A stretch of 64,000 bases of DNA from the NCBI GenBank assembly GCA_021818925.1, contig JAKASU010000001.1, positions 441,568 to 505,567 of the forward strand. The letters run 5' to 3'. The notes below the pieces were generated by a model. That model was not told the origin of the DNA and searched no databases. It saw nothing but the letters and a program-made list of their open reading frames with translations. Shown here one piece after another: positions 15,220 to 29,214 of this stretch. Every line of letters begins with the position of its first letter. The stretch's first letter is position 1. Position numbers and translations under genes: made by a program. The stretch is from Candidatus Micrarchaeota archaeon. Lineage in GTDB: Archaea; Micrarchaeota; Micrarchaeia; Micrarchaeales; CABMGC01.

Positions 15220-15270
15220 TCGATCAGAGCAGGCTTCTCGATAAGCCTAACTAAAATGCACGTTATTGAA

Positions 15271-15342
15271 GGCCTATGCCGGGAGTCGGACCCGGTCCTT
15301 AGGATCCACAGTCCTATATGCAGCCGTTACACCACAAAGGCC
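15271..15342 (-). tRNA. tRNA-His (GTG) with encoded G-1
   Basis: Hand fold: G-1 plus acceptor GCCTTTG/CATAGGC (one T-T mismatch) and discriminator C. Anticodon arm TAGGA-CTGTGGA-TCCTA. T arm CCGGG-TCCGACT-CCCGG. The D stem is weak and the T-loop is atypical (TCC). Confidence 0.6.
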
Positions 15343-15399: not shown

Positions 15400-15522
15400 G
15401 GCGGGGTAGCTCAGCCTGGTTAGAGCGCTAGACTCATATGCCAAGCATTATGAGTGGCGAGCACTTGTTGCGATGAGCGCTAAGAAATCTAGAGGTCGAG
15501 GGTTCGAATCACTCCCCCGCCA
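15400..15522 (+). tRNA. tRNA-Met/Ile2 (CAT anticodon) with a 48-nt intron after position 37
   Basis: Acceptor GGCGGGG/CCCCGCC, D arm GCTC-AGCCTGGTTA-GAGC, and anticodon stem CTAGA/TCTAG with CAT at 15435-15437. Intron at 15439-15486; its TATGAGT pairs with exon ACTCATA. T arm GAGGG-TTCGAAT-CACTC (one mismatch). CCA is not encoded. Confidence 0.8.
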
Positions 15523-15570
15523 AAACAGTAATATTGTAGTGATTTAAGCTTTAGGCGTACAAAGCATGAT

Positions 15571-16344
15571 ATGAGATTAGTATCGCTTAATTTATGGGGA
15601 GGAAGGGCGTATAATAAGTTAACCGAGTTTGTTGAAAGCGAAAAATTGCGCACCGATATATTTTGCTTTCAGGAGGTCCTTGACCTAAAGACCGGAGACA
15701 TAGACCCGGAGGTAAAAGCCGCAATCGAGGAATATCAAAAAAGCGGACGCAAACAAGAACTTAACTTATATTCAAGTCTAAGAGACCTGCTGACTGGTTT
15801 TGAAAGCTTCTTGTCTGAGCCTTATTCTCAAGGAGCAGAGAGGCTGGCAATTTTTGCCAGGAAAGAGTTAAAGGCACAAGTAGAAGTTCTTAAAGTACAC
15901 AGAAAAATTGATGTGATTCTTCATGATAAGCCATTTTGGGTCAGTTGCATAATGCAGCACGCCCAAATTAAAAGAGGCACGCTGTCTTACGACATAGCTC
16001 AGTTACACGGCCTTTGGCAAGGTGGAGGGAAAGCGGATACGCCTGAGAGATTAGAACAGTCTAAAACAATTAACAAACTGATGTCGAAGTTCGGTGAGAG
16101 GAAAGTACTTTGCGGTGACTTTAACCTTGATATAAACACAGAAAGCGTAAGAATGCTTGAAGACTCAATGACTGATTTGATTAGGACACACCGCATAACC
16201 ACAACACGAAGCACTCTAGCTCCTGCCAGGAAAGGAAAAATCGCTGATTATGTCTTTGTCTCTGATAAAATCAAGGTAAATGACTTTGAATTACCAGAAA
16301 CAGAAGCTTCAGACCATCTGCCTTTGTGTTTAGACTTCGAGTAG
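15571..16344 (+). CDS. Endonuclease/exonuclease/phosphatase (EEP) family protein
   Basis: SLNLWGG, FCFQEV, CGDFNL and EASDHLPL motifs. The DNA is AT-rich. Confidence 0.8.
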   Translation: MRLVSLNLWGGRAYNKLTEFVESEKLRTDIFCFQEVLDLKTGDIDPEVKAAIEEYQKSGRKQELNLYSSLRDLLTGFESFLSEPYSQGAERLAIFARKELKAQVEVLKVHRKIDVILHDKPFWVSCIMQHAQIKRGTLSYDIAQLHGLWQGGGKADTPERLEQSKTINKLMSKFGERKVLCGDFNLDINTESVRMLEDSMTDLIRTHRITTTRSTLAPARKGKIADYVFVSDKIKVNDFELPETEASDHLPLCLDFE

Positions 16345-16477
16345 AGCATGCTGGTTGCAGGCTTAGGACCCTGACGCCCACGGCCCTCCCCCGCCAAACC
16401 GACGACAAATCAACGACAGAATTGAGTAGCTTCGGGTAGCCCTTCGTTTCTTATACCTTAATCTCAACAATGTCAAT

Positions 16478-17179
16478 ATGGTGAGCGTTGATTTTAGGTT
16501 CAACTTAAAGGGCGATATAGACAACTGGTGGGACGCCTGCAATTCATCATTTATGGGAAATGATTGGAAAATGTGGATACGCCCAGACTTGAGAGAAAAA
16601 ATTGTGGGAGTTAGGAAGGACAAGGCTGAGCGCTTCCTGAGACCTTACCTTGAGGGAGTGTATAAACGCGAAGGAAAACATGTTCTGAAGATGATTGGCG
16701 TTTCTAAACGCTACTGGGATGAGAATGAGACTGAGATTTATAGCAGATTGAGTAAGATAACAAAGAAACCCATATGGCCGCCGATCATTCATTGTTATTA
16801 TACAACATTTCCGAGATGCCCTTATGGCTTCAAGAAGAATGAAGGCTGGTTATACATCAACAAAAAATTTGCCAAAAATAAGAAAGAATATGCAGGAACG
16901 GTTCTCCACGAGCTCATGCACTTCCAGTTTCATAAGTATTTCTGGGGCTACTGCAAAAAGCATGGTCTAAGTGATGCACAAATAAATCACTTGAAAGAAG
17001 CTTTTACGTTTTTGATAAATGAAGAGTTCTCTGATATTGTTTCCAGAGACAACGGTTATCGCATTCATAAGATGTTGAGGAAAGATTTGAGCAAAATTTG
17101 GAAAAAAAGCAATAACTTCAGAATTACTTTGGATGGTGGAATATTACTGATGAAAAGAAAATACCACAATCTCGATTAG
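16478..17179 (+). CDS. Hypothetical protein with HExxH metalloprotease-like motif
   Basis: VLHELMHFQFH in a 233-aa Lys/Trp-rich ORF. AT-rich DNA. Confidence 0.55.
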   Translation: MVSVDFRFNLKGDIDNWWDACNSSFMGNDWKMWIRPDLREKIVGVRKDKAERFLRPYLEGVYKREGKHVLKMIGVSKRYWDENETEIYSRLSKITKKPIWPPIIHCYYTTFPRCPYGFKKNEGWLYINKKFAKNKKEYAGTVLHELMHFQFHKYFWGYCKKHGLSDAQINHLKEAFTFLINEEFSDIVSRDNGYRIHKMLRKDLSKIWKKSNNFRITLDGGILLMKRKYHNLD

Positions 17180-17312
17180 AGAAACTGCAAAACCCTATAT
17201 CGCTCGCTATTGAAGAATATATGAAAGCCATCTTACCTTAGGTGCGCTGACCTCCCGCCAGACAAACGGTGCGTAAGTGTTAAATATCTGCTTGCGGATA
17301 ATAGTATTAGCT

Positions 17313-17396
17313 CGCCGGGTGTGGGAATCAAACCCACCAAGGTTGTTGGCCAGTCGTTTTTCAGAAGACACCGCTTTCATAGCGGTTTAACCCGGC
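17313..17396 (-). tRNA. Aberrant 84-nt tRNA-like element (type II/Ser-like scaffold with GAA anticodon position); possible pseudogene
   Basis: Perfect 7-bp acceptor GCCGGGT/ACCCGGC with discriminator G. T arm GTGGG-TTTGATT-CCCAC. Anticodon arm GTCTT-CTGAAAA-ACGAC (one T-C mismatch). 15-nt variable region. No canonical D stem and no GG in the D loop. Confidence 0.35.
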
Positions 17397-17405
17397 TTTG
17401 AGCGG

Positions 17406-17570
17406 CTATCTGATTTTAATCAGTGTCAAGACCGATGCCTGGATGATCTGCGCGCTTCTCGCATACGCTGCAGATATCCACGAGACGTAGTTTACCTCGC
17501 TCATCAGCGCGAGCAGGTAGAACGAGATGAAGAGCACGGTCAGGACCAGCACAAGGCCGTAGAACGACAT
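17406..17570 (-). CDS. Small hydrophobic protein (54 aa), last gene of the pilin-like operon
   Basis: MSFYGLVLVLTVLFISFYLLALM... The ATG at 17570 lies 4 nt after the stop of the upstream gene. The track ORF starts further upstream, inside that gene. Confidence 0.4.
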   Translation of the reverse strand: MSFYGLVLVLTVLFISFYLLALMSEVNYVSWISAAYARSAQIIQASVLTLIKIR

Positions 17571-17574
17571 GATA

Positions 17575-17946
17575 TCACGCGAACGAGACGCACACCTCGG
17601 CCGTGGAGTTTGTGCCCGCAAGGGGCACGCTCGAGCATGCCGCGCCGCCCTGGCCCACCTCTATGCTTATGCTGCCGATTCCGAATATGACGCTGAGGTT
17701 CTGCTCGATACCCGCCATGCACCCTGACTGCCCGCCGTCATAGAGCTGCAATACGCAGGTGTTGTACGTTGAGTTGCGCTCGAGCGCGTTGAAGATGTCG
17801 TAGGCCGCAATGCTCCTCTGGAGCGACGTTGACTGCGAGGCGAGGTTGGCTGTAGACGAGTTTACAAGCGAAGAGGCGAAGCCAACTGCAGATACCACCA
17901 GCGCGAGCGCTATTCCTGCCTCGACCGTTGCGAACTGCGCCTTCAT
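17575..17946 (-). CDS. Type IV pilin-like protein (class III signal peptide)
   Basis: N-terminus MKAQFATVEAGIALALVVSAVGFA. Located 1 nt from the upstream gene. Confidence 0.7.
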   Translation of the reverse strand: MKAQFATVEAGIALALVVSAVGFASSLVNSSTANLASQSTSLQRSIAAYDIFNALERNSTYNTCVLQLYDGGQSGCMAGIEQNLSVIFGIGSISIEVGQGGAACSSVPLAGTNSTAEVCVSFA

Positions 17947-17947
17947 G

Positions 17948-18922
17948 CTAGCTCCTCACGTTTATCACGCTGCCCAGGTAGTAGAAGGTCTGGTTCTGCA
18001 CTCCGGCACCGGGAGAGAGCGTCACGTTTATGAGGTACAGGAAGGGCGAGGCGGCGGCGCACGTGTAGCTGTTGCCCACCACGGCGCACTGCGGGACCTG
18101 GGCGCTGCCGCTCACGAGATGCAGCTGGGCGCTTGAGAACGCGCCTATCGACTGCTCTATGATCTCCTGCGTGGATGAATCGACGCCTGTGTTGTTGTAG
18201 AAAGCGAGCATAGGATAGAGCACGCTCTTCTGCTGCGAATATGCGGAAAGGTACGTCTGGTTCGCAACGCTGTAGTTGGCAAGGTACTGCAACAACGAGA
18301 TGCTGGGCTCCGCGTCTGTGCTGCTCACGCTTGAAACGCTGGCGCTGCCCACCTCATTGCCGCTGAGCACCACCGGCGAGCTGCCGCGCACGCTGCTTAT
18401 CTGGGACATCATCCGCCCGGCAGGAGAGCCTATCACAAGCGTGAAGTTGTATGAGTATGAGCGCGAGCCGTTGAGCCGGTCCACCGCGTAGCCCGTGTCA
18501 TGGGGAATTATGCAGTACGCGCCTGTGCTCGCGCAGTCGTAGCCTGCTATGTAGTCCCATGCGTTGCTCGTGCCGCACTGCCCCTGGACGCCGAACCTGT
18601 TGCCGTAGAACCCGTGGTAGGTGCAGTGGCTGAACTGCGTCAGGTTCGTCACATACTCTGGCGGGCTGAGGCCGTAGCCGACGGACTCGCTGGCGTTAGT
18701 TATGTAAGCGTAAGAAGCCGCGTACGCTGTTGTCGTGGCGGGTGAGTAGTTGAATAGGAAGAAGGGCTCGGGATACGAGAGGTTTGCTGGCATCCTTGCG
18801 GCTGATGCGAGCGCCGATGCCTGCGAGAAGAGGTTCCTGGAGTAGAAGCCGACCAGGAAGAGGGCCATTGCCGCGACCGCGCTCCCTATCAGCATGAACT
18901 CGAGGCTAGCCTGCGCTCTCAT
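17948..18922 (-). CDS. Large type IV pilin-like / pilus-associated glycoprotein
   Basis: N-terminus MRAQASLEFMLIGSAVAAMALFLVGF. 11 N-x-S/T sequons and several Cys pairs. Confidence 0.75.
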   Translation of the reverse strand: MRAQASLEFMLIGSAVAAMALFLVGFYSRNLFSQASALASAARMPANLSYPEPFFLFNYSPATTTAYAASYAYITNASESVGYGLSPPEYVTNLTQFSHCTYHGFYGNRFGVQGQCGTSNAWDYIAGYDCASTGAYCIIPHDTGYAVDRLNGSRSYSYNFTLVIGSPAGRMMSQISSVRGSSPVVLSGNEVGSASVSSVSSTDAEPSISLLQYLANYSVANQTYLSAYSQQKSVLYPMLAFYNNTGVDSSTQEIIEQSIGAFSSAQLHLVSGSAQVPQCAVVGNSYTCAAASPFLYLINVTLSPGAGVQNQTFYYLGSVINVRS

Positions 18923-19271
18923 TCCTCACCACCATCAGGTAAGCCACACCGGAGACGGTCACAAGCCTGCACGCCGTTCCGGCGGCGGAGCACTCCGGCG
19001 CTTCGCCTGGATCAGAAAGCTGCGCGGAGAGCCCGTACCTCGCGGAGACGGTCCCTGCGGCAAGCAGCGCAGACGAGTAGTTAGCGGAGGCATCTACGGC
19101 TCCAGCGATCTGCTGCGAAGCTGAAAGCATGCGGAGGCGTGACGCCTCGGAGACGCCCAGCTCCAGGAGGTAGCCCTGCGTGCCCCTTATGCTTGACAGG
19201 AGCAGCAGCACCGCTACGCTGAGTATCGGTAGCGCAACGACCATGTCCAGCGATATCATGACAAGCCTCAT
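18906..19271 (-). CDS. Pilin-like membrane-anchored protein
   Basis: N-terminus MRLVMISLDMVVALPILSVAVLLLL. Overlaps the downstream gene by 17 nt. Confidence 0.55.
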   Translation of the reverse strand: MRLVMISLDMVVALPILSVAVLLLLSSIRGTQGYLLELGVSEASRLRMLSASQQIAGAVDASANYSSALLAAGTVSARYGLSAQLSDPGEAPECSAAGTACRLVTVSGVAYLMVVRNESAG

Positions 19272-19275
19272 CTAA

Positions 19276-19425
19276 TCACGCCAGCGAGTTCGCAATTGCT
19301 GAGAGCGCGCCCCTCGTGCCATCTATCAGCTGCGCCGCGCCCGACAGGTAGCCGGCCAGCGCAACGGCCACGAGGAGGGAGACCGCCATGCCGATGAGTA
19401 TCTCCAGAGAGAGCTGCGCTTCCAT
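19276..19425 (-). CDS. Short type IV pilin-like protein (49 aa), not in the ORF track
   Basis: Hand translation: MEAQLSLEILIGMAVSLLVAVALAGYLSGAAQLIDGTRGALSAIANSLA*. First gene of the operon. Its stop lies 4 nt before the next ATG. Confidence 0.6.
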   Translation of the reverse strand: MEAQLSLEILIGMAVSLLVAVALAGYLSGAAQLIDGTRGALSAIANSLA

Positions 19426-19661
19426 GAAAAGACCGTTGTGAGAGGCGGCTTTCGCCGCCCCTGCTTCTAGGTGATGCCGGTCGTGCCGGCGATTATTATT
19501 ACGCGGTAAAGGATTATATACTTTACTACAAGATTAACCTATTGGATATATAAACTTGTATCTGCATATATGAATCAGGTAAGAGCGAAGGTCAAAGCGC
19601 TATAAACAAATGACATGGCGAAAGCCATCGGCAGAAGCCGCTCCTGCTTCTGGGTGATAAG

Positions 19662-19979
19662 ATGAGAGTGAGTGAAAAGCATGGACAGGGAAAGACGGAC
19701 AATGTGCGGAAATGCTGCGCCGGTAGCCTCGGCGAGATCGTGCACACGATCGTCGAGCTTTCGGGCATGTGCGCCGAGAGCGCGCGCGCTGGTGGAGACG
19801 CGTGGTACGAGGTGAGCGTGTACGTGCACAAGGGCGGGCTGACTTACCAGGTGCAGCGGCACGGTTCTGTCGTAGGCGGGGAGACCCGCCTCCTGCCCTG
19901 CGGGTGCGGGCTTGCTGATAAAGCAAGTATGTTAGCAGACTTTATTAGCAAAGCCAGCCTAACGCCAATGTTTATATAG
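19662..19979 (+). CDS. Hypothetical Cys-containing protein (105 aa)
   Basis: Codon periodicity is clear (G-rich first positions, G/C third positions). GGGTGAT (SD-like) sits 4 nt upstream of the ATG. The competing minus-strand ORFs are Arg-rich and judged spurious. Confidence 0.45.
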   Translation: MRVSEKHGQGKTDNVRKCCAGSLGEIVHTIVELSGMCAESARAGGDAWYEVSVYVHKGGLTYQVQRHGSVVGGETRLLPCGCGLADKASMLADFISKASLTPMFI

Positions 19980-20831: not shown

Positions 20832-20885
20832 GCAATCGTTAAATACCTGGAAAATACATCACTCTTGTACCAATCAGGGAAGATA

Positions 20886-22274
20886 ATGCCCGACGGAACG
20901 GATCTTAGGAAGCTGATAAGGGAAGATATGCAGCACTGCCCCACGTGCGGGAGGCGAGACGGCATAATATACGATGAGAACGGCCAGGCGTTCTGCAGGC
21001 GCGATGGCACGATAATACCAGGCATGGAGAACTACTTCAGGGGAATGCAGAAGACCAGAAACAGCGACACCGGGGAGCTTGAGACCGGCACGGGCTCGTC
21101 CGAATCAGTGGCTATGCACGACATGGGCTTGGCGACGGTGATCGGCAAGAACAACGTGGACGCGCACGGCGGGCACATAAGGGGCCAGATGAGGTCAACG
21201 CTGGATAGACTGCGCACCTGGGACCGCAGGAGCCAGGTCAACAAGTCGGTTGACAGGAACCTTGGGCAGGCGCTGAGCGAGATGGACAGGCTCGCGGGCA
21301 AACTCAACCTTCCGCAGAGCGTGCAGGAGAAGGGCGCCTATATATACAGGAAGGCGCTTGAGAAGGGGCTGATAAGGGGCAGGTCTATAACTTACATGGC
21401 TGCCGCTTCGCTCTATGCGGCGTGCAGGGAGACCGAGACTCCGCGAACGCTCAAGGACATATCCGCAGTCATGGGGGGAACGTACAAGACGAAGAATGAG
21501 ATTGCGAGATCGTATAGGACAATGTTCAGAGAGGGCATCTTCGAAAAGGCGCACGGGGAAGCGCTGGCGCAGGAGGAAGATAAGGAACAGAGCAGGAGCA
21601 CGGTACCGGTACCGGTGCCTGCCAACTACGTTTCCAGGGTCGCTAGCGAGGCGCGCCTGACTGAGAAGACAAAGAGAAGAGCGCTGGAGATGCTTGAGAT
21701 GCCACAGGTGAAGGAGATAATGGCGGGCAAGGAGCCCATGGGGTTCGCTGCAGCCGCGCTCTATCTGGCCTGCACGCTTGAGGGCGAGAACAAGACGCAA
21801 AAGGAGGTGGCAGACGCCGCCAGAGTTACCGAGGTGACGATAAGGAACAGGTACAAGGGCCTGCAGAGCGCGTTGTACGGGAAGCCTGAGCCCGAGTCGA
21901 AGGACGCGTTCCCGGAAAGGCGCGATCCGGTCCCGAAGCTCGAGCATCCGAAGATACAGGACCTGCCCCCGAACACCAGGTTCATGCACCAGGAGATGCT
22001 AAACAGGCTCATCGCTACGGCTAGAACGAGCGGCGCGCCACCCGAAGTACTCAGCAAGACCGTTGAGATCTACGATACGACCATATCTGAGGGCATAAAC
22101 ACGTACCCGAACATTAATTTCGCTGTCGCGTGCCTCGTATCAGCTTACAGGGTGAGCGGGGTAAGCAAGAGCGGCGCTAACTTCAATAGCAAGGACGTGT
22201 CGCCGATAATGGTAAACAGGAACGCCCGCATGATAGAGGAAAGGTTGAATTTGAACATCAAATTGCAGGACTAG
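20886..22274 (+). CDS. tfb: Transcription initiation factor TFB (TFIIB homologue) with C-terminal extension
   Basis: Zn ribbon CPTCG...CRRDG and B-linker HDMGLATVIG. Cyclin repeat 1 LIRGRSITYMAAASLYAACR and repeat 2 PMGFAAAALYLACT...VTEVTIRNRYK, followed by about 130 extra residues. Confidence 0.85.
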   Translation: MPDGTDLRKLIREDMQHCPTCGRRDGIIYDENGQAFCRRDGTIIPGMENYFRGMQKTRNSDTGELETGTGSSESVAMHDMGLATVIGKNNVDAHGGHIRGQMRSTLDRLRTWDRRSQVNKSVDRNLGQALSEMDRLAGKLNLPQSVQEKGAYIYRKALEKGLIRGRSITYMAAASLYAACRETETPRTLKDISAVMGGTYKTKNEIARSYRTMFREGIFEKAHGEALAQEEDKEQSRSTVPVPVPANYVSRVASEARLTEKTKRRALEMLEMPQVKEIMAGKEPMGFAAAALYLACTLEGENKTQKEVADAARVTEVTIRNRYKGLQSALYGKPEPESKDAFPERRDPVPKLEHPKIQDLPPNTRFMHQEMLNRLIATARTSGAPPEVLSKTVEIYDTTISEGINTYPNINFAVACLVSAYRVSGVSKSGANFNSKDVSPIMVNRNARMIEERLNLNIKLQD

Positions 22275-23312: not shown

Positions 23313-24143
23313 ATGCCTCGTATAGGTTACCACATCTCCATCGCCGGCACGATGGACACGGCCCTGGACAGGGCCAGGGAGATAGGCTGCACGTGCATGC
23401 AGATCTTCCCGAGCAATCCGCGCGGATGGGCGGTCAAAGAGCTTGAGAAGACTGAGATTGAGGCGTTCAGGCGTAAGCAGAAGGCGTATGATGTAAGCCC
23501 GGTCTTCGTGCACATGCCATACCTTCCCAACCTCGCGTCGCCCAAGCCAGAGGTCTATGAGAAGTCGAAGACGGCGATGATAGAGGCGCTGCGCAGGTGC
23601 AACATGCTTGGCGCAAGGTACCTGATAGTCCATCTTGGAAGCCACCTTGGCACGGGAGCCGAGGCGGGAAGGGAGAGGGTCGCCGCCGCTGTAAACGAGA
23701 TGGAGAGGCACGCCGGCGAAGTGACCATACTGATGGAGAACGAGGCCGGGCAGCGCAACAGCGTGGGCAGCCGGCTTGACGAGCTTGTCGAGATATACGA
23801 CCGCGTGGACCATGACAGGATAGGCTTCTGCCTCGACACGTGCCACGTCTTTGCGGCGGGCTACGACATAGGAAAGAGGGAGGTCGCGCGCGAGGTCATC
23901 GAGACGCTGGACGTTGACAGGATAGGCTGCATCCACCTGAACGACGCGAAGCATCCTCTCGGATCGGGGCTGGACAGGCACGCTGACATAGGCTTCGGCC
24001 ACATAGGCAGGAGCGGCTTCGAGAACTTCTTCAGCGTGGACGGCGTAAGGGGGAAGCCGATGATAATGGAGACGCCGCTTGTCGAGACTCCCAGGGACGC
24101 TAAGGGCGAGCTAGGACTTGTAAGGAAGCTGCTTGAGGCTTAG
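23313..24143 (+). CDS. nfo: Endonuclease IV (AP endonuclease)
   Basis: IGYHISIAG, VHMPYLPNLASP, LIVHLGSH, MENEAG, CLDTCHVFAAGYD and IHLNDAK. ATG 23313 lies downstream of GTTTATAGC. Confidence 0.9.
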   Translation: MPRIGYHISIAGTMDTALDRAREIGCTCMQIFPSNPRGWAVKELEKTEIEAFRRKQKAYDVSPVFVHMPYLPNLASPKPEVYEKSKTAMIEALRRCNMLGARYLIVHLGSHLGTGAEAGRERVAAAVNEMERHAGEVTILMENEAGQRNSVGSRLDELVEIYDRVDHDRIGFCLDTCHVFAAGYDIGKREVAREVIETLDVDRIGCIHLNDAKHPLGSGLDRHADIGFGHIGRSGFENFFSVDGVRGKPMIMETPLVETPRDAKGELGLVRKLLEA

Positions 24144-24725
24144 GTCCTGCCTTGCGAACGTGAAGACGGTCTGGTGGATGAGAAACCTCAGTTCTTCCTT
24201 GTTCTGCTTCTCGCCTATCTTGACGTAGCCGCGCATGAGCTCCGCAAACCCGGATATCACGTGTCGCTCCGCCGCAACCGACGGCTTGGCCTTGCCCTCG
24301 AGCAGCTCCCACGCGAGCTCCGTCTCCTTCAGCAGCAGTCCCGAGTACAGTATGACCGAAATCCTGGTCCCTTCCAGCTGAACGCCGATATCGTACGCGC
24401 TGTTGAAGAGCGTGGCGGTGAAGAGCACGTCGAAGCTGCTATCCTCGTCCTGCTCTGCGTCGAAGTCCGCCCGCAGCTCTATGCGGTCCGGCCTCAGAAG
24501 CGCCTCGATGTGAGGACTGACGAACAGGGCCTGCCTCCTTCCATAGTCGCGAAGGTCAGAGACCGTTTCGGCGGAATAAGGAACGGCATAGCCTGCGGCC
24601 CCGCGAGCCATGTCCATCCATTCCACCACCTTCGGGGAGAGCAGATAGTGCTCCTTGCGCATCTCGTCATCAAGCCTGAGTACGTTGGTGCGCCGCCGCT
24701 TCATTCCACCATCAAACGTGTCCAC
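24111..24725 (-). CDS. Hypothetical protein (ORFan C of a three-gene set)
   Basis: 204-aa ORF. Its start overlaps the upstream gene's end by 14 nt. Confidence 0.55.
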   Translation of the reverse strand: MDTFDGGMKRRRTNVLRLDDEMRKEHYLLSPKVVEWMDMARGAAGYAVPYSAETVSDLRDYGRRQALFVSPHIEALLRPDRIELRADFDAEQDEDSSFDVLFTATLFNSAYDIGVQLEGTRISVILYSGLLLKETELAWELLEGKAKPSVAAERHVISGFAELMRGYVKIGEKQNKEELRFLIHQTVFTFARQDLSLKQLPYKS

Positions 24726-25797
24726 CGCTCTTGACCAGTATGCTCAGCTCGGACCTGTATGCGCTGGAACTGGCGAGCAGCGTGCCCGTCTCGAACTTCT
24801 CGTGCTTGAGCACGTATCCTGATATTGCAGCAAGCGTCCTAGGGTCCCACTGCCACAGGTTAGAGACATAGATTATGTTGGGGGCATCGCCAGCGGGCAC
24901 ACGCACCAGATAGTCGAGCATGTCGGCATCGAAGGCGTTTATCACGGGCATCTCCTCAGGCTGCATGATGCTGGACACGAGGCAGTATCTCGCCGATCTG
25001 TCTAGCACCGTCTCGCGAATATCGCCGTTTCTGTCCTTTGCCCTCGTCACGGCGGCGCCGTCGGTGTCTACGCAGACCTCGCCCACCTGCCTCCCGGTCC
25101 AGGTATCGACCACCTCGGCGGCATCTCCGGAAAGCATCGGGCCTACAAAGCTCCCGTGTTCGGCGTGCATGCGCCTTCTCTGGCGCGAGCCTCTCTCCCT
25201 AAAGTGCAGATCTCCGAATCCGCAGGCGAACAGGCCTCTCTCATTAGCGTATATCTCGTTTGGCGATTCGCTATTGGAGCGCACAACACCTCCCTTCCTC
25301 TTTGGCATGAAGGCTGTGCCGCTTGCTCTCATCTCGTTCTCCATCTCAGCAAGCAGACGGAGGTTCATCACCTGCGCCTCGTTTACGTCCATGCCTGCAA
25401 CGCTCTCAAGTCTCTTGCCAGACAGCGCCAGCGAGACAGTCATTCTCAGGAACTGGTCTCCGCCGCCTATTATTCCTGCGAACCTCAGGCTTTCGACCGA
25501 GGACCTCTCCACGGCACTGTTCAGAAGCGAGAGGCTTGCATTGATTGGCTCATTGCTCATGCTGAAGCCCAGGTCGGCCTCATCGCCATCATTCATCCAG
25601 GCGGCAACGGGTCGACTTGCGCGGATGAACCTAGAGCCGCCGTATATCAGCTTGAAGCCCGAAGCCGTCTGCTTCTCCAACCCGTGCCTTTCCAGAAATT
25701 CCAGCCCGAATGCTTCCCTGCGCAGCATACGCAACCCATCGTTTGCGCTGCGGCAGATTGAATCGTGCTGAATGCGCTTCTGGTTCTCCCCTTCCAT
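24712..25797 (-). CDS. Hypothetical protein (ORFan B)
   Basis: 361-aa ORF with no recognised motif. The antisense 283-aa ORF is judged spurious. Confidence 0.55.
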   Translation of the reverse strand: MEGENQKRIQHDSICRSANDGLRMLRREAFGLEFLERHGLEKQTASGFKLIYGGSRFIRASRPVAAWMNDGDEADLGFSMSNEPINASLSLLNSAVERSSVESLRFAGIIGGGDQFLRMTVSLALSGKRLESVAGMDVNEAQVMNLRLLAEMENEMRASGTAFMPKRKGGVVRSNSESPNEIYANERGLFACGFGDLHFRERGSRQRRRMHAEHGSFVGPMLSGDAAEVVDTWTGRQVGEVCVDTDGAAVTRAKDRNGDIRETVLDRSARYCLVSSIMQPEEMPVINAFDADMLDYLVRVPAGDAPNIIYVSNLWQWDPRTLAAISGYVLKHEKFETGTLLASSSAYRSELSILVKSGGHV

Positions 25798-25846
25798 TGA
25801 AGCATCTTCAAATCTGGCTAGGTTTCCTGCCTTTAAATATATTCTT

Positions 25847-26428
25847 TCAGGACTGTTCCGTGCTTACCGGAGCCTCCATTGGCAGCCTCTTGGTCTCCCT
25901 GAGCTCCTCCTGCACGCCGAGCAGTATCGTTGACTTCGCGTCCTCGAGCGAGGCGTAGTCCACCTTGTCGTTCTGGAACTTGAACGGGCCCACGACAATT
26001 GCACAGACGTCGTGTTCGGAGAGCTCAACCGGCTCGTCCCTCAGGTCCTTGACCACCAGCCCGTGCCTGTTCACCCTGTCAGAGTAGTAGTTCAATGCGA
26101 GTTCGAAGTCGTCGCGCGGGTAGACCATTGCCGCGAAGAAGGCTATTCTGCCATCAGCAGGGCTGTCCTCGCTGAGCATCAGCACCTTCTTCGGTTTCTC
26201 CAGGAGTGCTGTGTGCATGCTCACGGTATCGGCTACAAACCTGCCGAAGAGCATGGCGTCACCCAGGAAGTTATCGGCCCTCTTCAGGAACCGGAGCCCA
26301 GCGTCGCTGAGCCTGTCTGCTACCTGGTCGGGCTTTATGCTGGCGAATACGCTTATGCCGCTCTCGCGGAGCAGCCTCTGGTTCGCCATCCCCAGCCTGC
26401 TCCCGTCGATATGCTTAGAACCCTCCAT
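25847..26428 (-). CDS. Hypothetical protein (ORFan A)
   Basis: 193-aa ORF, 46 nt downstream of the membrane/pilin-like gene on the same strand. Confidence 0.55.
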   Translation of the reverse strand: MEGSKHIDGSRLGMANQRLLRESGISVFASIKPDQVADRLSDAGLRFLKRADNFLGDAMLFGRFVADTVSMHTALLEKPKKVLMLSEDSPADGRIAFFAAMVYPRDDFELALNYYSDRVNRHGLVVKDLRDEPVELSEHDVCAIVVGPFKFQNDKVDYASLEDAKSTILLGVQEELRETKRLPMEAPVSTEQS

Positions 26429-26474
26429 GCTTGCTCGGATAGGAGTTTGTCAGGCCTGTTTTTAAGGATTGGCG

Positions 26475-27464
26475 TTATCTGCTCAGGGAGGTGAGGTTCT
26501 CGCCGGCTGTGTTGTTCACGTGCACGAGTGGGGGCACCGATGTCATGTTGTAGTACACCTGTATGTGCGCGGTCTGCAGCGGAGTGGCCTGGCTGCCCGG
26601 ATGGTATGCGACCCAGAGTATGCCGTTGAACGGCGCAGAGGCGTTGCTTATCCCGTAGCACGGCAGGTCCCGCGCGCGTATGGGCGAGCCGGCGGTTATA
26701 GATGTTCCAGGAAGCCCCTGACTAAAGGTTCCGTTCGCCTGCAGGTAGTAGAACTGGTACTGTGATGGCGTCTCGAATCCGAAGCCGTTAGTGCAGGCGA
26801 TGTCGAGGTTGTAGAGCGTGTCGTTGGTGTCGTTGGAGTAGAGGGTAAATGAGAGGTTCGCGGGCGCGGAGAGCACGGGAGCACCGCAGTTGAATGGCTG
26901 GTCGCGCTCTATGGTGGAGCAGCCCGAGTACTTTACTATTGTGGTCGTGAGCGTGCTGGTGGAGGACGTGGTGGCTATCGTGCTAGTGGTGTTGAGCGAG
27001 GTGGTCGTAGTGCTCGCCGGCGCTATCTGCGCGGCTCCGTTTATGCCGAAGAAAACAAGTGCGCTGACTACCGCTATGATCGCTATCGCGAGCACGTAGA
27101 CGTTCTGCTCCATCCTGCGCCCCTGGCCCCTCTTCATGTTGAGGACTATGTACAAGGAGAGGAGCGTAAAGACCAGGTTGAAGGCGAGCTCTGCGATGCT
27201 GACGGTTCTGGTGAGCGCGAAGATTACGGAGAGGACGACATAGCCGGCCGCGAAGGCGAGCTGCTCGTCGACGAGCGGGGCCACAAGGCCGACGACCACA
27301 ATCACAAGCGCCAGGCTCGACAGCGAGGCTATGCCTGTGAGCGCGGCAATACCGGTTCCCTGGAGCAGCTCCAGCAGCTGGCTGAGAAACGCGACGAACA
27401 GTCCGGCGGCGAACTCCTTGTATATCTCCTGCATTCCGTGCTTCATCCTGCTTGGTGTTTTCAT
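26475..27464 (-). CDS. Polytopic membrane protein fused to a Thr-rich linker and a pilin-like glycosylated ectodomain
   Basis: About 5 hydrophobic helices in aa 15-160, then linker TTTTSLNTTSTIATTSSTSTLTTTIV. The C-terminal domain has 9 sequons, Cys pairs and FNGILWVAY (compare FTGYLTINY in the pilin at 48535..49020). Confidence 0.7.
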   Translation of the reverse strand: MKTPSRMKHGMQEIYKEFAAGLFVAFLSQLLELLQGTGIAALTGIASLSSLALVIVVVGLVAPLVDEQLAFAAGYVVLSVIFALTRTVSIAELAFNLVFTLLSLYIVLNMKRGQGRRMEQNVYVLAIAIIAVVSALVFFGINGAAQIAPASTTTTSLNTTSTIATTSSTSTLTTTIVKYSGCSTIERDQPFNCGAPVLSAPANLSFTLYSNDTNDTLYNLDIACTNGFGFETPSQYQFYYLQANGTFSQGLPGTSITAGSPIRARDLPCYGISNASAPFNGILWVAYHPGSQATPLQTAHIQVYYNMTSVPPLVHVNNTAGENLTSLSR

Positions 27465-27492
27465 GTAGTGCGTCGCCTGTTACGGTGTTTGT

Positions 27493-29214
27493 ATGATGTG
27501 TGCTAATAAAAAGGTTATAGTACTGGGAAAAGTGAAGAGGGAGTTGCGTTTGTGCAGGCGTTTTGGCCTGTTGAGATGGCAGTGGAAGAGGAGGTGGCTC
27601 TTCAATGCTATGAGGCTCGATCCCGCAAGGAACCTGAACTCGCACATGATGATAACCGGAGAGAGCGGTGCGGGGAAGAGCAGCGTGTGCAAGCAGATAC
27701 TTGTGCAGCTGGCGAACGCGGGAGCCAACTTCGTTGTGCTGGACCCCCATGCGGAGTACGTTGAGCACGCGAAGGAGATGCGTGCAGCTATGTACGATGC
27801 GAGCATGCACGCCATAAATCCCTTCGACCTGGACGGCCTAACGGAGAGAGAGCGCACCGCGGAGATAACGGCCATGCTGAGAAGAATCCTACGCCTGGGA
27901 GAGGTGCAGGCATCCACGCTGCACCGCTGCATAAGCTACACGTACTGGATAAGCAAAGTCAGGGACGCGGGGCCGAGCATGCACAGCCTGCTCTACACGA
28001 TAAAGGTATTCAAGCGCAGGGCGAGGAGCAAGCCGGAGGTGAACCTGCTCGACGCCCTTGAGAAGCGCCTGCTTGTCATAGCCGGCGAGAGCTTCCGCAG
28101 GAACGTGTCGATGGGGAGCGTGATGCATGGCAGAAGCATCTTCGCGCTGCAGGGGCTGCACAGCGCCGAGGCCCAGGCGATATATATGGAGTCGATGCTT
28201 CGAAAAATATACACGAACATTCTGCAAGAAGGTTCGCGAAGAAAGGGGAGGTTCTACATAGTCATAGACGAGGCCGAGAAGCTGCAGGACAGCCCGGTAG
28301 TCGGTAGGCTCGTGGCGGAGGGCAGGAAGTACGGGATAGGCATGATAGCGATATCGCAGAGGGCGAAGGCGCTGGACAAGGAGATACGCAGCAACGCGGC
28401 TACGATGATCGCGTTCGCACAGAGGGAGCCCGAGGAGCAGAACTACGTGGCGAACATGATCGCTGCGGGAACCGAGTACAACAGGTTCATCGAGGTAAGA
28501 AAGGCGCTGAGGGAACTGCCGAGAGGCTCCGCAATGGTGCAGGAGTCAAGAGGCAGGGGCCCGAGGATAGTGAGGTGCGGGCGTTTTGAGGCGAAGAAGA
28601 GGGACCCGGGCCACAGGATAATCGAGATGGCGAGAGGGGTGGTGAGCAAGCAGGAATTGGTTGAGAGGTTGGGAAAAGAGGGTTTTACTCCGGAGGAAAC
28701 GATTGGCAGCGTGGCTGAACTGATAAGGGCGGGCACGCTGAATTATCACGTGGTTACTGAGTCGCATTACGAGGGGACTTGGTATATAGCGATGCCGAGG
28801 AACAGCGCAGAACACGACATAATGGTCAATCTGATAAGCAGGTACCTGACTGAAAACGGGATAAGGAACGAGGTATACAACAACGCTTATGGGCCGGATG
28901 TGATTGCGTACAAGGACGGGAAGAGGTTCGCGGTGGAGTACGAGACCGGGAAGAAAAAGGCACGCGACACGCTCATCATGCTGGGAAAGAGGCAGGAACG
29001 CTACTACAAAACCATTCTCATAGGAAATAATGAGGTGAGTGTCATGCGTGCGGGGCGGGGCTCTGCCGCTCCGCCACTTGGCTCTACTATAAGTATTAGA
29101 ACAACCAATGCTTACAGCAGGCGAACCGATGACAATGGAAAAAAGCCCGGGGATCTTCGTTCTTCTCATGAAGAACACGAACAGGATGGAGCTGGACAAG
29201 GACATAATGCATAA
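27493..29214 (+). CDS. DUF87/HerA-FtsK-type P-loop ATPase with winged-helix and PD-(D/E)xK-like C-terminal region
   Basis: Walker A ITGESGAGKSS and Walker B FYIVIDEAEKL, plus GRKYGIGMIAISQRAKALDKEIRSNAATMIAF. The C-terminus carries EHD...GPDVIAY...AVEYETGKK. The start could instead be ATG 27610. The last roughly 60 residues are low-complexity and may not be real. Confidence 0.8.
   Translation: MMCANKKVIVLGKVKRELRLCRRFGLLRWQWKRRWLFNAMRLDPARNLNSHMMITGESGAGKSSVCKQILVQLANAGANFVVLDPHAEYVEHAKEMRAAMYDASMHAINPFDLDGLTERERTAEITAMLRRILRLGEVQASTLHRCISYTYWISKVRDAGPSMHSLLYTIKVFKRRARSKPEVNLLDALEKRLLVIAGESFRRNVSMGSVMHGRSIFALQGLHSAEAQAIYMESMLRKIYTNILQEGSRRKGRFYIVIDEAEKLQDSPVVGRLVAEGRKYGIGMIAISQRAKALDKEIRSNAATMIAFAQREPEEQNYVANMIAAGTEYNRFIEVRKALRELPRGSAMVQESRGRGPRIVRCGRFEAKKRDPGHRIIEMARGVVSKQELVERLGKEGFTPEETIGSVAELIRAGTLNYHVVTESHYEGTWYIAMPRNSAEHDIMVNLISRYLTENGIRNEVYNNAYGPDVIAYKDGKRFAVEYETGKKKARDTLIMLGKRQERYYKTILIGNNEVSVMRAGRGSAAPPLGSTISIRTTNAYSRRTDDNGKKPGDLRSSHEEHEQDGAGQGHNA
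27503..27520. promoter_or_regulatory. A/T-rich segment AATAAAAAGGTTATAG in the divergent region between the membrane/pilin-like gene and the ATPase gene
   Basis: It is the only A/T-rich stretch between ATG 27464 (minus strand) and the candidate ATPase starts. Confidence 0.35.

Follow-up and report, generated by a model that had tools for sequence, protein, structure and literature searches.

What does a pilin-like operon of five genes belong to when the surrounding 64 kb encode no machine that could assemble a pilus? The question is raised by 64,000 nucleotides (nt) from the metagenome-assembled genome (MAG) of a Candidatus Micrarchaeota (DPANN) archaeon (contig JAKASU010000001.1, positions 441,568 to 505,567 of the forward strand; "the window" below means this whole stretch), in which five adjacent genes, here g1 to g5, form a type IV pilin-like operon. 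We put a probability of roughly 0.8 on the reading that g1-g5 make up the distal half of the gene array for a Micrarchaeota type IV pilus of the clade 1, or system 1 (Epd-like), kind, the half that encodes its accessory subunits (minor pilins), and that they have been separated from a machine half encoded elsewhere.

A conserved pilin-like operon of five genes

The five genes were taken from the listing of open reading frames (ORFs) and the sequence:

19276-19425, minus strand: g1, 49 amino acids (aa), N-terminus MEAQLSLEILIG
18906-19271, minus strand: g2, 121 aa, N-terminus MRLVMISLDMVVAL
17948-18922, minus strand: g3, 324 aa, N-terminus MRAQASLEFMLIG
17575-17946, minus strand: g4, 123 aa, N-terminus MKAQFATVEAGIA
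17406-17570, minus strand: g5, 54 aa counted from the ATG, N-terminus MSFYGLVLV

An earlier note, made from the sequence, had described a close-packed operon, and the ORF listing and the letters agree on this: all five genes are co-oriented, with spacings from g1 to g5 of 4, -17, 1 and 4 nt. Its count of 11 N-x-S/T sequons in the 324-aa product was also correct; Cys residues number 6 in this protein, 4 in g4 (alongside 4 sequons) and 2 in g2. The five-gene order recurs in those related Micrarchaeota loci whose length allows it to be seen, and the 17-nt overlap of g2 and g3 is kept in the closer relatives. A profile search of 1.84 billion cluster representatives placed 153 of them in the g3 family at E<=1e-3. 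Because the order recurs and the g3 family has this many representatives, g1-g5 are real genes, not chance ORFs, and together form a genuine conserved pilin-like operon.

The module follows a secretion ATPase in related genomes

The strongest indication of what the operon belongs to comes from more distant Micrarchaeota (loci L020-L025, L032 and L033), in which the orthologous module lies directly downstream of machine genes, co-oriented with them and tightly spaced—an arrangement that we call joined-type, and that is also found on a complete 853-kb chromosome. The gene order at these loci is an ATPase of ~500-530 aa, two membrane proteins of ~240 aa, a pilin of 80-89 aa, a pilin of ~125 aa, and then g1-g5. 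Pfam identifies the first protein as a secretion ATPase of the T2SSE family (PF00437, 66 bits, E 3.2e-18; also recovered by tblastn) with its best NCBIfam similarity to FlaI and TadA-type ATPases, and the lineage's ATPase carries GPPASGKTT as its Walker-A motif. Two membrane-protein genes, coding for ~210-260 aa, always stand behind the ATPase; only the second product matches T2SSF, and weakly (E 0.0045; 17.4 bits, where the cut-off is 25.2). The 80-89-aa pilin reads ...K(G/A)↓QGS(L/M)EYIMM, the arrow marking the predicted cleavage site, and matches Class_IIIsignal at E 9.5e-4, and the ~125-aa pilin has the N-terminus MKAQxSLE. The type IV pilin-like identity that had been proposed for the window's genes is therefore upheld by their orthologues, which follow a T2SSE ATPase, two platform-like proteins and a small class III pilin.

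Clade 1 of the archaeal type IV pili (T4P) has been described as an ATPase, two TadC genes, a major pilin of ~70 aa and at least five minor pilins (PMC4858521), and type IV filament (TFF) system 1 has been found in methanogens, Thermococcales and DPANN (preprint 10.64898/2026.04.22.720090). The layout found here is of this kind: an 80-89-aa pilin, a ~125-aa pilin and g1-g5, with a T2SSE ATPase linked to them in the orthologous loci.

A few kb downstream of two joined-type operons (L023, 15093-15572; L025, 10563-11042) lies the gene for another type of pilin, 159 aa long and reading M(L)KxQ(S/T)A(M/I)EYL(M/V)TYGWA.... It probably serves as a subunit in the second T4P system of Micrarchaeota, which has been reported for Mia14.

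The array is split in the window's clade

Within the window, Pfam scans of about 50 ORFs returned no match to T2SSE, T2SSF or Peptidase_A24, and tblastn with the lineage's ATPase, both platform-like proteins and both upstream pilins gave noise only; the functions that Pfam did find are housekeeping ones, such as MCM, PolB, RNR, DnaK/J/GrpE, RpoA, TFB, Lhr and two-component proteins. Both approaches thus agree with the earlier note that these 64 kb hold no assembly ATPase, platform or prepilin peptidase gene, and throughout the window's clade (L001-L019) no ATPase was found within 10 kb of g1-g5. The suggestion that these are pilins without a machine did not survive. In two sister species both halves lie on one contig in the same orientation, at distances computed from the locus coordinates of ~167 kb in REEA67 (JAGWHC010000001.1) and ~156 kb in YP1.bin59 (JAKASP010000001.1); in a third MAG they are on separate contigs. 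Synteny is kept both upstream of the ATPase (OTCase, an NAD-binding protein and a 112-aa helix-turn-helix protein) and downstream of g5 (an AAA+TPR ATPase, RNase H, a metallophosphatase and Lhr), and the rearrangement therefore cut the array precisely where the 125-aa pilin gene met g1. At least nine species-level lineages retain the split arrangement.

The ATPase half of the window's own species was recovered on many contigs. It comprises a 497-aa ATPase (69% identical to that of REEA67), membrane proteins of 209 and 208 aa, an 88-aa pilin (...ARSKKA↓QSSLEYIMM) and a ~125-aa pilin that reads MRAQLSLELMLY from an inferred upstream TTG and was called as 115 aa. Its G+C content of 0.54 is the same as that of the window, and it is present in three MAGs whose accessions adjoin that of the window's MAG (GCA_027364065.1, GCA_027364155.1 and GCA_027363995.1). 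Sequencing run SRR22746122 contains a >90% identical variant of the ATPase cluster P0205 together with the window's exact g3. The operon is, then, a pilin set encoded in trans, not an orphan. Pilins in trans are common in archaea, with documented cases in Haloferax, Halobacterium and Methanococcus (PMC4858521), and because archaeal pilins away from their ATPase are documented, its absence beside g1-g5 is no anomaly. The genes do not represent a new kind of machine.

N-terminal signals and protein families

The earlier note had credited three of the proteins, and a fourth more loosely, with class III-like signal peptides. We applied a FlaFind-type pattern ([KRDE][GA][ALIFQMVED][ILMVTAS]x3, then a hydrophobic stretch), and among all ORFs of the window only g1 (EA↓Q) and g3 (RA↓Q) match it at residue 2. 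The claim stands for these two; g4 (KA↓QF) falls one residue short of the pattern, and g2 and g5 fail it. In g1 (QLSLEILIG) and g3 (QASLEFMLIG) the cut would expose the QxSxExxxL motif at the head of a hydrophobic helix (hydropathy 1.66-2.14, the upper value being that of g1).

The large pilin-like g3 begins MRA↓QASLEFMLIG. Its relatives, most of which are ~420-445 aa long with an extra segment of ~100 aa behind the N-terminal helix, have uniform N-termini of the form M-[KR]-x-Q-[AT]-S-[LI]-E-F-[LI], and Q4 and E8 are invariant in 30 diverse homologues, 12 of which match PF04021 (Class_IIIsignal) at E<=0.1 (best E 8.4e-6). Across 114 members of the family, K or R occupies position -2 in 99; at position -1, only 37 have G or A, and 68 have L, I, M or V. 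In the close family (15 members) all 6 Cys are invariant, as are both Asn and Thr at the sequons N221, N243, N299 and N310, and the Asn alone at N93. The exact g3 protein occurs on 12 contigs, among them one of NCBI MAG GCA_027364115.1 and a 226,660-bp ENA contig (ERZ27237490:k141_380440). Named homologues come from Candidatus Micrarchaeota MAGs, the exception being one whose deposited name is Candidatus Marsarchaeota. When one genome was scanned for each GTDB species, 16 loci were found, 14 of them named Micrarchaeota, Micrarchaeales or Micrarchaeia and the other two being the 'Marsarchaeota' MAG and the complete 853-kb chromosome OY969902.1.

The g4 family has an invariant N-terminus, MKAQFAT.EA, in which Q4 and E9 stand one residue out of register; its homologues retain M1, Q4, A6, E9, D50 and four invariant Cys. 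An AlphaFold2 model of g4 with a predicted local distance difference test (pLDDT) score of 71 has a long N-terminal helix, two more helices and a three-stranded sheet. The g3 model, built with 15 homologues, reaches a pLDDT of 49. N-terminal helices were poorly modelled in both, with pLDDT <50 over residues 22-68 of g3 and 1-31 of g4.

Among the small members, g1 consists of a three-residue leader (MEA), then QLSLEILIG and the hydrophobic helix, with a globular part that is nearly nil. Orthologues with M[KE]xQ[LIM]S[LIVA]E are present in every split and joined locus, and their length varies from 49 to 94 aa as called. The hydrophobic N-terminal helix of g2 bears a conserved ISLD motif, which recurs as [KR]xxx[IV]SLD[LM] at the same position in the orthologues of all loci. 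Orthologues of g5 with [SA][FLY]YG[LFI] end the module in nearly all loci that are long enough; g5 is probably a small hydrophobic membrane accessory protein rather than a pilin.

A conserved leader upstream of g1

Upstream of g1 lies a conserved intergenic block, and beyond it a divergent gene that serves here as context only:

19426-19661, minus strand: conserved intergenic block of 236 nt, between g1 and the divergent 105-aa gene
19615-19628 and ~19584-19601: two further hairpins in the leader block
~19546-19554 and 19514-19524: TATA-like boxes in the leader block
19476-19490: hairpin GCCGG-CACGA-CCGGC
19444-19460: invariant GC hairpin GGGCGGCG-GNRA-GCCGCC
19662-19979, plus strand: divergent 105-aa gene with a conserved core of ~75 aa

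The block also contains a near-invariant ATCACC(Y)AGAAG stretch, and its mean column identity is 73% and 68% in alignments of 10-11 species. In the sole direct comparison, with REEA67 (L007), nt identity is 79-82% at the end nearest the divergent gene (19582-19880), 61% in the g1-proximal leader (19435-19581) and 59-69% in g1-g3. The stem of the hairpin at 19476-19490 shows compensatory changes between species (GCCGG/CCGGC, GCCGC/GCGGC, GCCAG/CTGGC and GTTGGG/CCCAAC). The GC hairpin at 19444-19460 occurs once per locus in 21 split-type loci (L001-L018 and L043-L045) and once in the window, where 0.02 copies are expected; it is absent from L019, the most distant split-type locus, and from the joined-type and ATPase loci. 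Rfam holds no family for the block. From these features 19426-19661 is a putative bidirectional promoter with structured leaders, and may possibly constitute a new cis-regulatory leader or operator.

The divergent gene adjoins g1 in L001-L017 and L043-L045 (tblastn; 50-76% identity across species). It was not found by tblastn in joined-type or ATPase loci and has no Pfam match.

Two alleles of g4-g5

Comparison with the conspecific locus L001 shows 97-100% identity in most 150-nt intervals from ~20325 to 17968, and just 59-75% nt identity over g4-g5 (17373-17967). Against REEA67 the picture is reversed: g4-g5 are 84-93% identical at the nt level and g1-g3 59-69%. These contrasts indicate that two divergent g4-g5 alleles are present in one species, with a breakpoint near 17950.

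A proposed model and its alternatives

We propose that the ancestral array would have read ATPase, two platform-like proteins, ~85-aa major-type pilin, 125-aa pilin and g1-g2-g3-g4-g5. A chromosomal rearrangement in the window's clade severed it between the 125-aa pilin and g1, and the distal half now has a putative promoter of its own and a conserved leader. The products of g1-g4 would insert into the membrane through their N-terminal hydrophobic helices; a class III (A24-family) signal peptidase encoded elsewhere would cut off the M-K/R-x tripeptide, exposing Gln at +1 and Glu at +5; and the trans-encoded ATPase and platform would build a filament from g1-g4 with the small pilin. The small proteins may sit within the filament or prime its assembly, g3, N-glycosylated and disulfide-bonded, would be exposed and possibly at the tip, and g5 may act as a small membrane accessory protein. 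Gene structure, conservation, the linkage to the machine at orthologous loci and the split are shown; we infer the cleavage and assembly of g1-g4, the position of each subunit and any adhesive role.

Several results weigh against this reading. Neither g2 nor g5 has a recognisable cleavage site. A bulky residue at -1 is atypical of known class III peptidase substrates, and cleavage of the g3 family is therefore not assured. The window's g3 scores 14.2 bits (E 0.042) against PF04021, under the cut-off of 23.7; g1, g2, g4 and g5 have no match to that family in the Pfam scan, and residues 2-68 of g4 match Pfam DUF7288 instead, at E 2.4e-4 and below its cut-off. No Peptidase_A24 protein, and hence none of the dedicated EppA-type peptidases that are a clade 1 trait, was detected among the called genes within 8-10 kb of either half at any locus examined. 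The ATPase half was seen in MAGs of neighbouring accession and in shared samples, not in the window's MAG (GCA_027364115.1) itself. No solved pilin was matched by structure: Foldseek gave nothing below E=3 for the g4 model against the PDB, and for the g3 model only hits such as MexA at E>0.5, which we discard as meaningless because the pLDDT of that model is only 49. A search of PDB sequences with the g3-family profile also found nothing.

Of the alternatives, the one that fares best has g1-g5 building a filament or pseudopilus of their own, in which the 49-aa g1 would be the main subunit; it would borrow the ATPase and platform in trans and be distinct from the filament of the 88-aa pilin. 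Since the split the operon has had its own promoter and leader, which makes separate regulation possible; g1 lacks a globular domain, as do Epd and Tad major pilins; and a 2026 preprint (10.64898/2026.04.22.720090) suggests that system 1 may support two pilus types. Joined-type genomes, however, have all pilin genes behind the ATPase in one co-oriented, tight array, which favours a single structure, and the length of g1 is poorly conserved. We consider a second filament unlikely.

A second alternative, which we judge quite unlikely, is that g1-g5 are surface glycoproteins with uncleaved N-terminal signal anchors that form part of an envelope or host-contact surface and of no filament. It would account for the mostly bulky -1 residue of the g3 family, for the lack of a cleavage motif in g2 and g5 and of any matched pilin fold, and for the predicted richness of g3 in sequons and disulfides, a property of envelope proteins. 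It sits poorly with the class III signature, a uniform M-[KR]-x leader and then an invariant Q..E, and with the many genomes in which the genes are linked to a T2SSE ATPase and a platform. That the operon, lying physically apart from its machine, is a decaying and non-functional remnant of the separation is highly improbable, given intact reading frames, Cys and sequon residues retained in the close g3 family, conserved N-terminal motifs in the g3 and g4 families, and a split kept in at least nine species-level lineages with a conserved promoter and leader.

The accessory-half reading brings five 'hypothetical' families, none of which has a Pfam match above cut-off, into the accessory half of the system 1 pilus, and the analysis shows that the pilus array was split in one clade. 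On Micrarchaeota, which are obligate ectosymbionts, cryo-tomography has revealed thin pilus-like filaments, for which there is no molecular parts list (PMC11329633; PMC5498576). For studies of host contact the operon offers three candidates: g3 as an exposed subunit, the variable g4-g5 cassette and the conserved leader. The earlier note had favoured a tip or adhesin role for the 324-aa protein and a cell-cell or host-attachment function for the filament; both are possible, and we regard g3 as a candidate distal or adhesive minor subunit. The more ambitious version—that g3 is a host-recognition tip adhesin, that exchange of the g4-g5 cassette between species retunes the tip complex, and that the invariant hairpin leader, gained after the split, is a new cis-regulatory element controlling the adhesive subunits independently of the motor—we hold to be doubtful. 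The adhesin part of it draws on a family restricted to Micrarchaeota without a sequence or fold relative, on three conserved disulfides and on heavy glycosylation, these last two predicted. The adhesin role, the cassette exchange and the leader are best treated as leads, not findings.

Other features of the window

Directly downstream of the operon lies a 1.8-kb island of low G+C (15527-17317; ~0.47), inserted immediately 3' of an intron-containing tRNA and absent from L001. It encodes an endonuclease/exonuclease/phosphatase-family protein (15571-16344) and a 233-aa protein with a weak SprT-like match (16478-17179). An intron-containing tRNA of 123 nt (15400-15522, plus strand; Rfam 55 bits, missed by ARAGORN) adjoins a tRNA-His on the minus strand (15270-15342). 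In one relative a pyroglutamyl peptidase gene (Peptidase_C15; L008, 11527-12141, and L009, 8101-8715) sits on the opposite strand, immediately next to where the pilin module ends; curious as this is given the predicted Gln-first mature pilins, the adjacency is probably coincidental.

A 573-aa HerA/VirB4-superfamily ATPase is encoded at 27493-29214. We considered it as an alternative assembly motor and rejected it, as it is not a T2SSE protein. Its best matches are CedD, HerA and CedB, far below cut-offs, and its C-terminal tail resembles a PD-(D/E)xK nuclease. The gene is divergent from four genes without Pfam matches, one of them, at 26475-27464, coding for a multi-pass membrane protein whose extracellular domain is rich in sequons; 24111-29214 as a whole may be a module for DNA transfer or defence. 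Such an ATPase also lies near the pilin module in several split-type relatives (L001-L008 and L018), but on the opposite strand, at a distance of 6-8 kb and beyond unrelated genes, and none was called within 10 kb of the joined-type operons; its proximity seems to reflect synteny within the clade and not operon linkage.

An unusually long TFIIB paralogue (20865-22274, plus strand; 469 aa, with an extra C-terminal region) stands ~1.4 kb upstream of the operon. Makarova et al. are said to have found TFIIB homologues to be frequent neighbours of archaeal T4P loci. We weighed this gene as a T4P-associated regulator and do not count it in the system, because it is not kept beside the module in L008 and L015.

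Between 32000 and 42000 the G+C content falls to 0.47-0.50, against ~0.56 elsewhere in the window. This region, possibly another island, encodes a Fic/DOC protein, a nucleotidyltransferase, two NUDIX hydrolases, an EamA transporter, an AsnC-type regulator and proline dehydrogenase.

Comparison with known systems

In bacteria, the FimU-PilVWX and GspH-I-J-K sets each group four to five pilin-like genes, including one that far exceeds the others in size, and their products are thought to prime assembly and cap the fibre. The operon described here has a similar form, although signal type and machinery clade differ and no similarity of sequence or fold was detected. The PilA1-6 pilins of Haloferax volcanii resemble it in being encoded away from the PilB3/PilC3 locus that assembles them (PMC4858521); they belong, however, to T4P clade 2 and to unrelated families, and are stand-alone major pilins rather than an operon of accessory subunits.

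Within the same phylum, the locus MIA14_0170-0177 of Mia14 ('Ca. Mancarchaeum acidiphilum') comprises a CpaF-family ATPase (MIA14_0170), two TadC proteins (0172 and 0173) and a secreted component (0176), and its A24 peptidase, MIA14_0570, is encoded at another place in the genome (PMC5498576, Suppl. Table 2). A single downstream gene is annotated there as a pilus component, whereas the five-gene module and its split have not been described for Mia14.

The closest parallel is with the Epd pili of Methanococcus maripaludis (EpdE as major pilin, EpdA-C as minor pilins, and the peptidase EppA). The two differ in that g2-g5 have no detectable similarity to the Epd minor pilins or to any Pfam or NCBIfam pilin family, that the leader is just three residues long with L, I, M or V often at -1, that neither locus here holds a dedicated peptidase, and that the g3 family turned up in Micrarchaeota only. 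They share the QxSxExxxL motif, which has Gln at +1, a small pilin of the major type that lacks a globular domain, two platform or platform-like genes, one T2SSE-family ATPase and at least five extra pilin-like genes, and in Methanococcus, as in the window's clade, the parts of the system are found at separate loci (PMC4858521).

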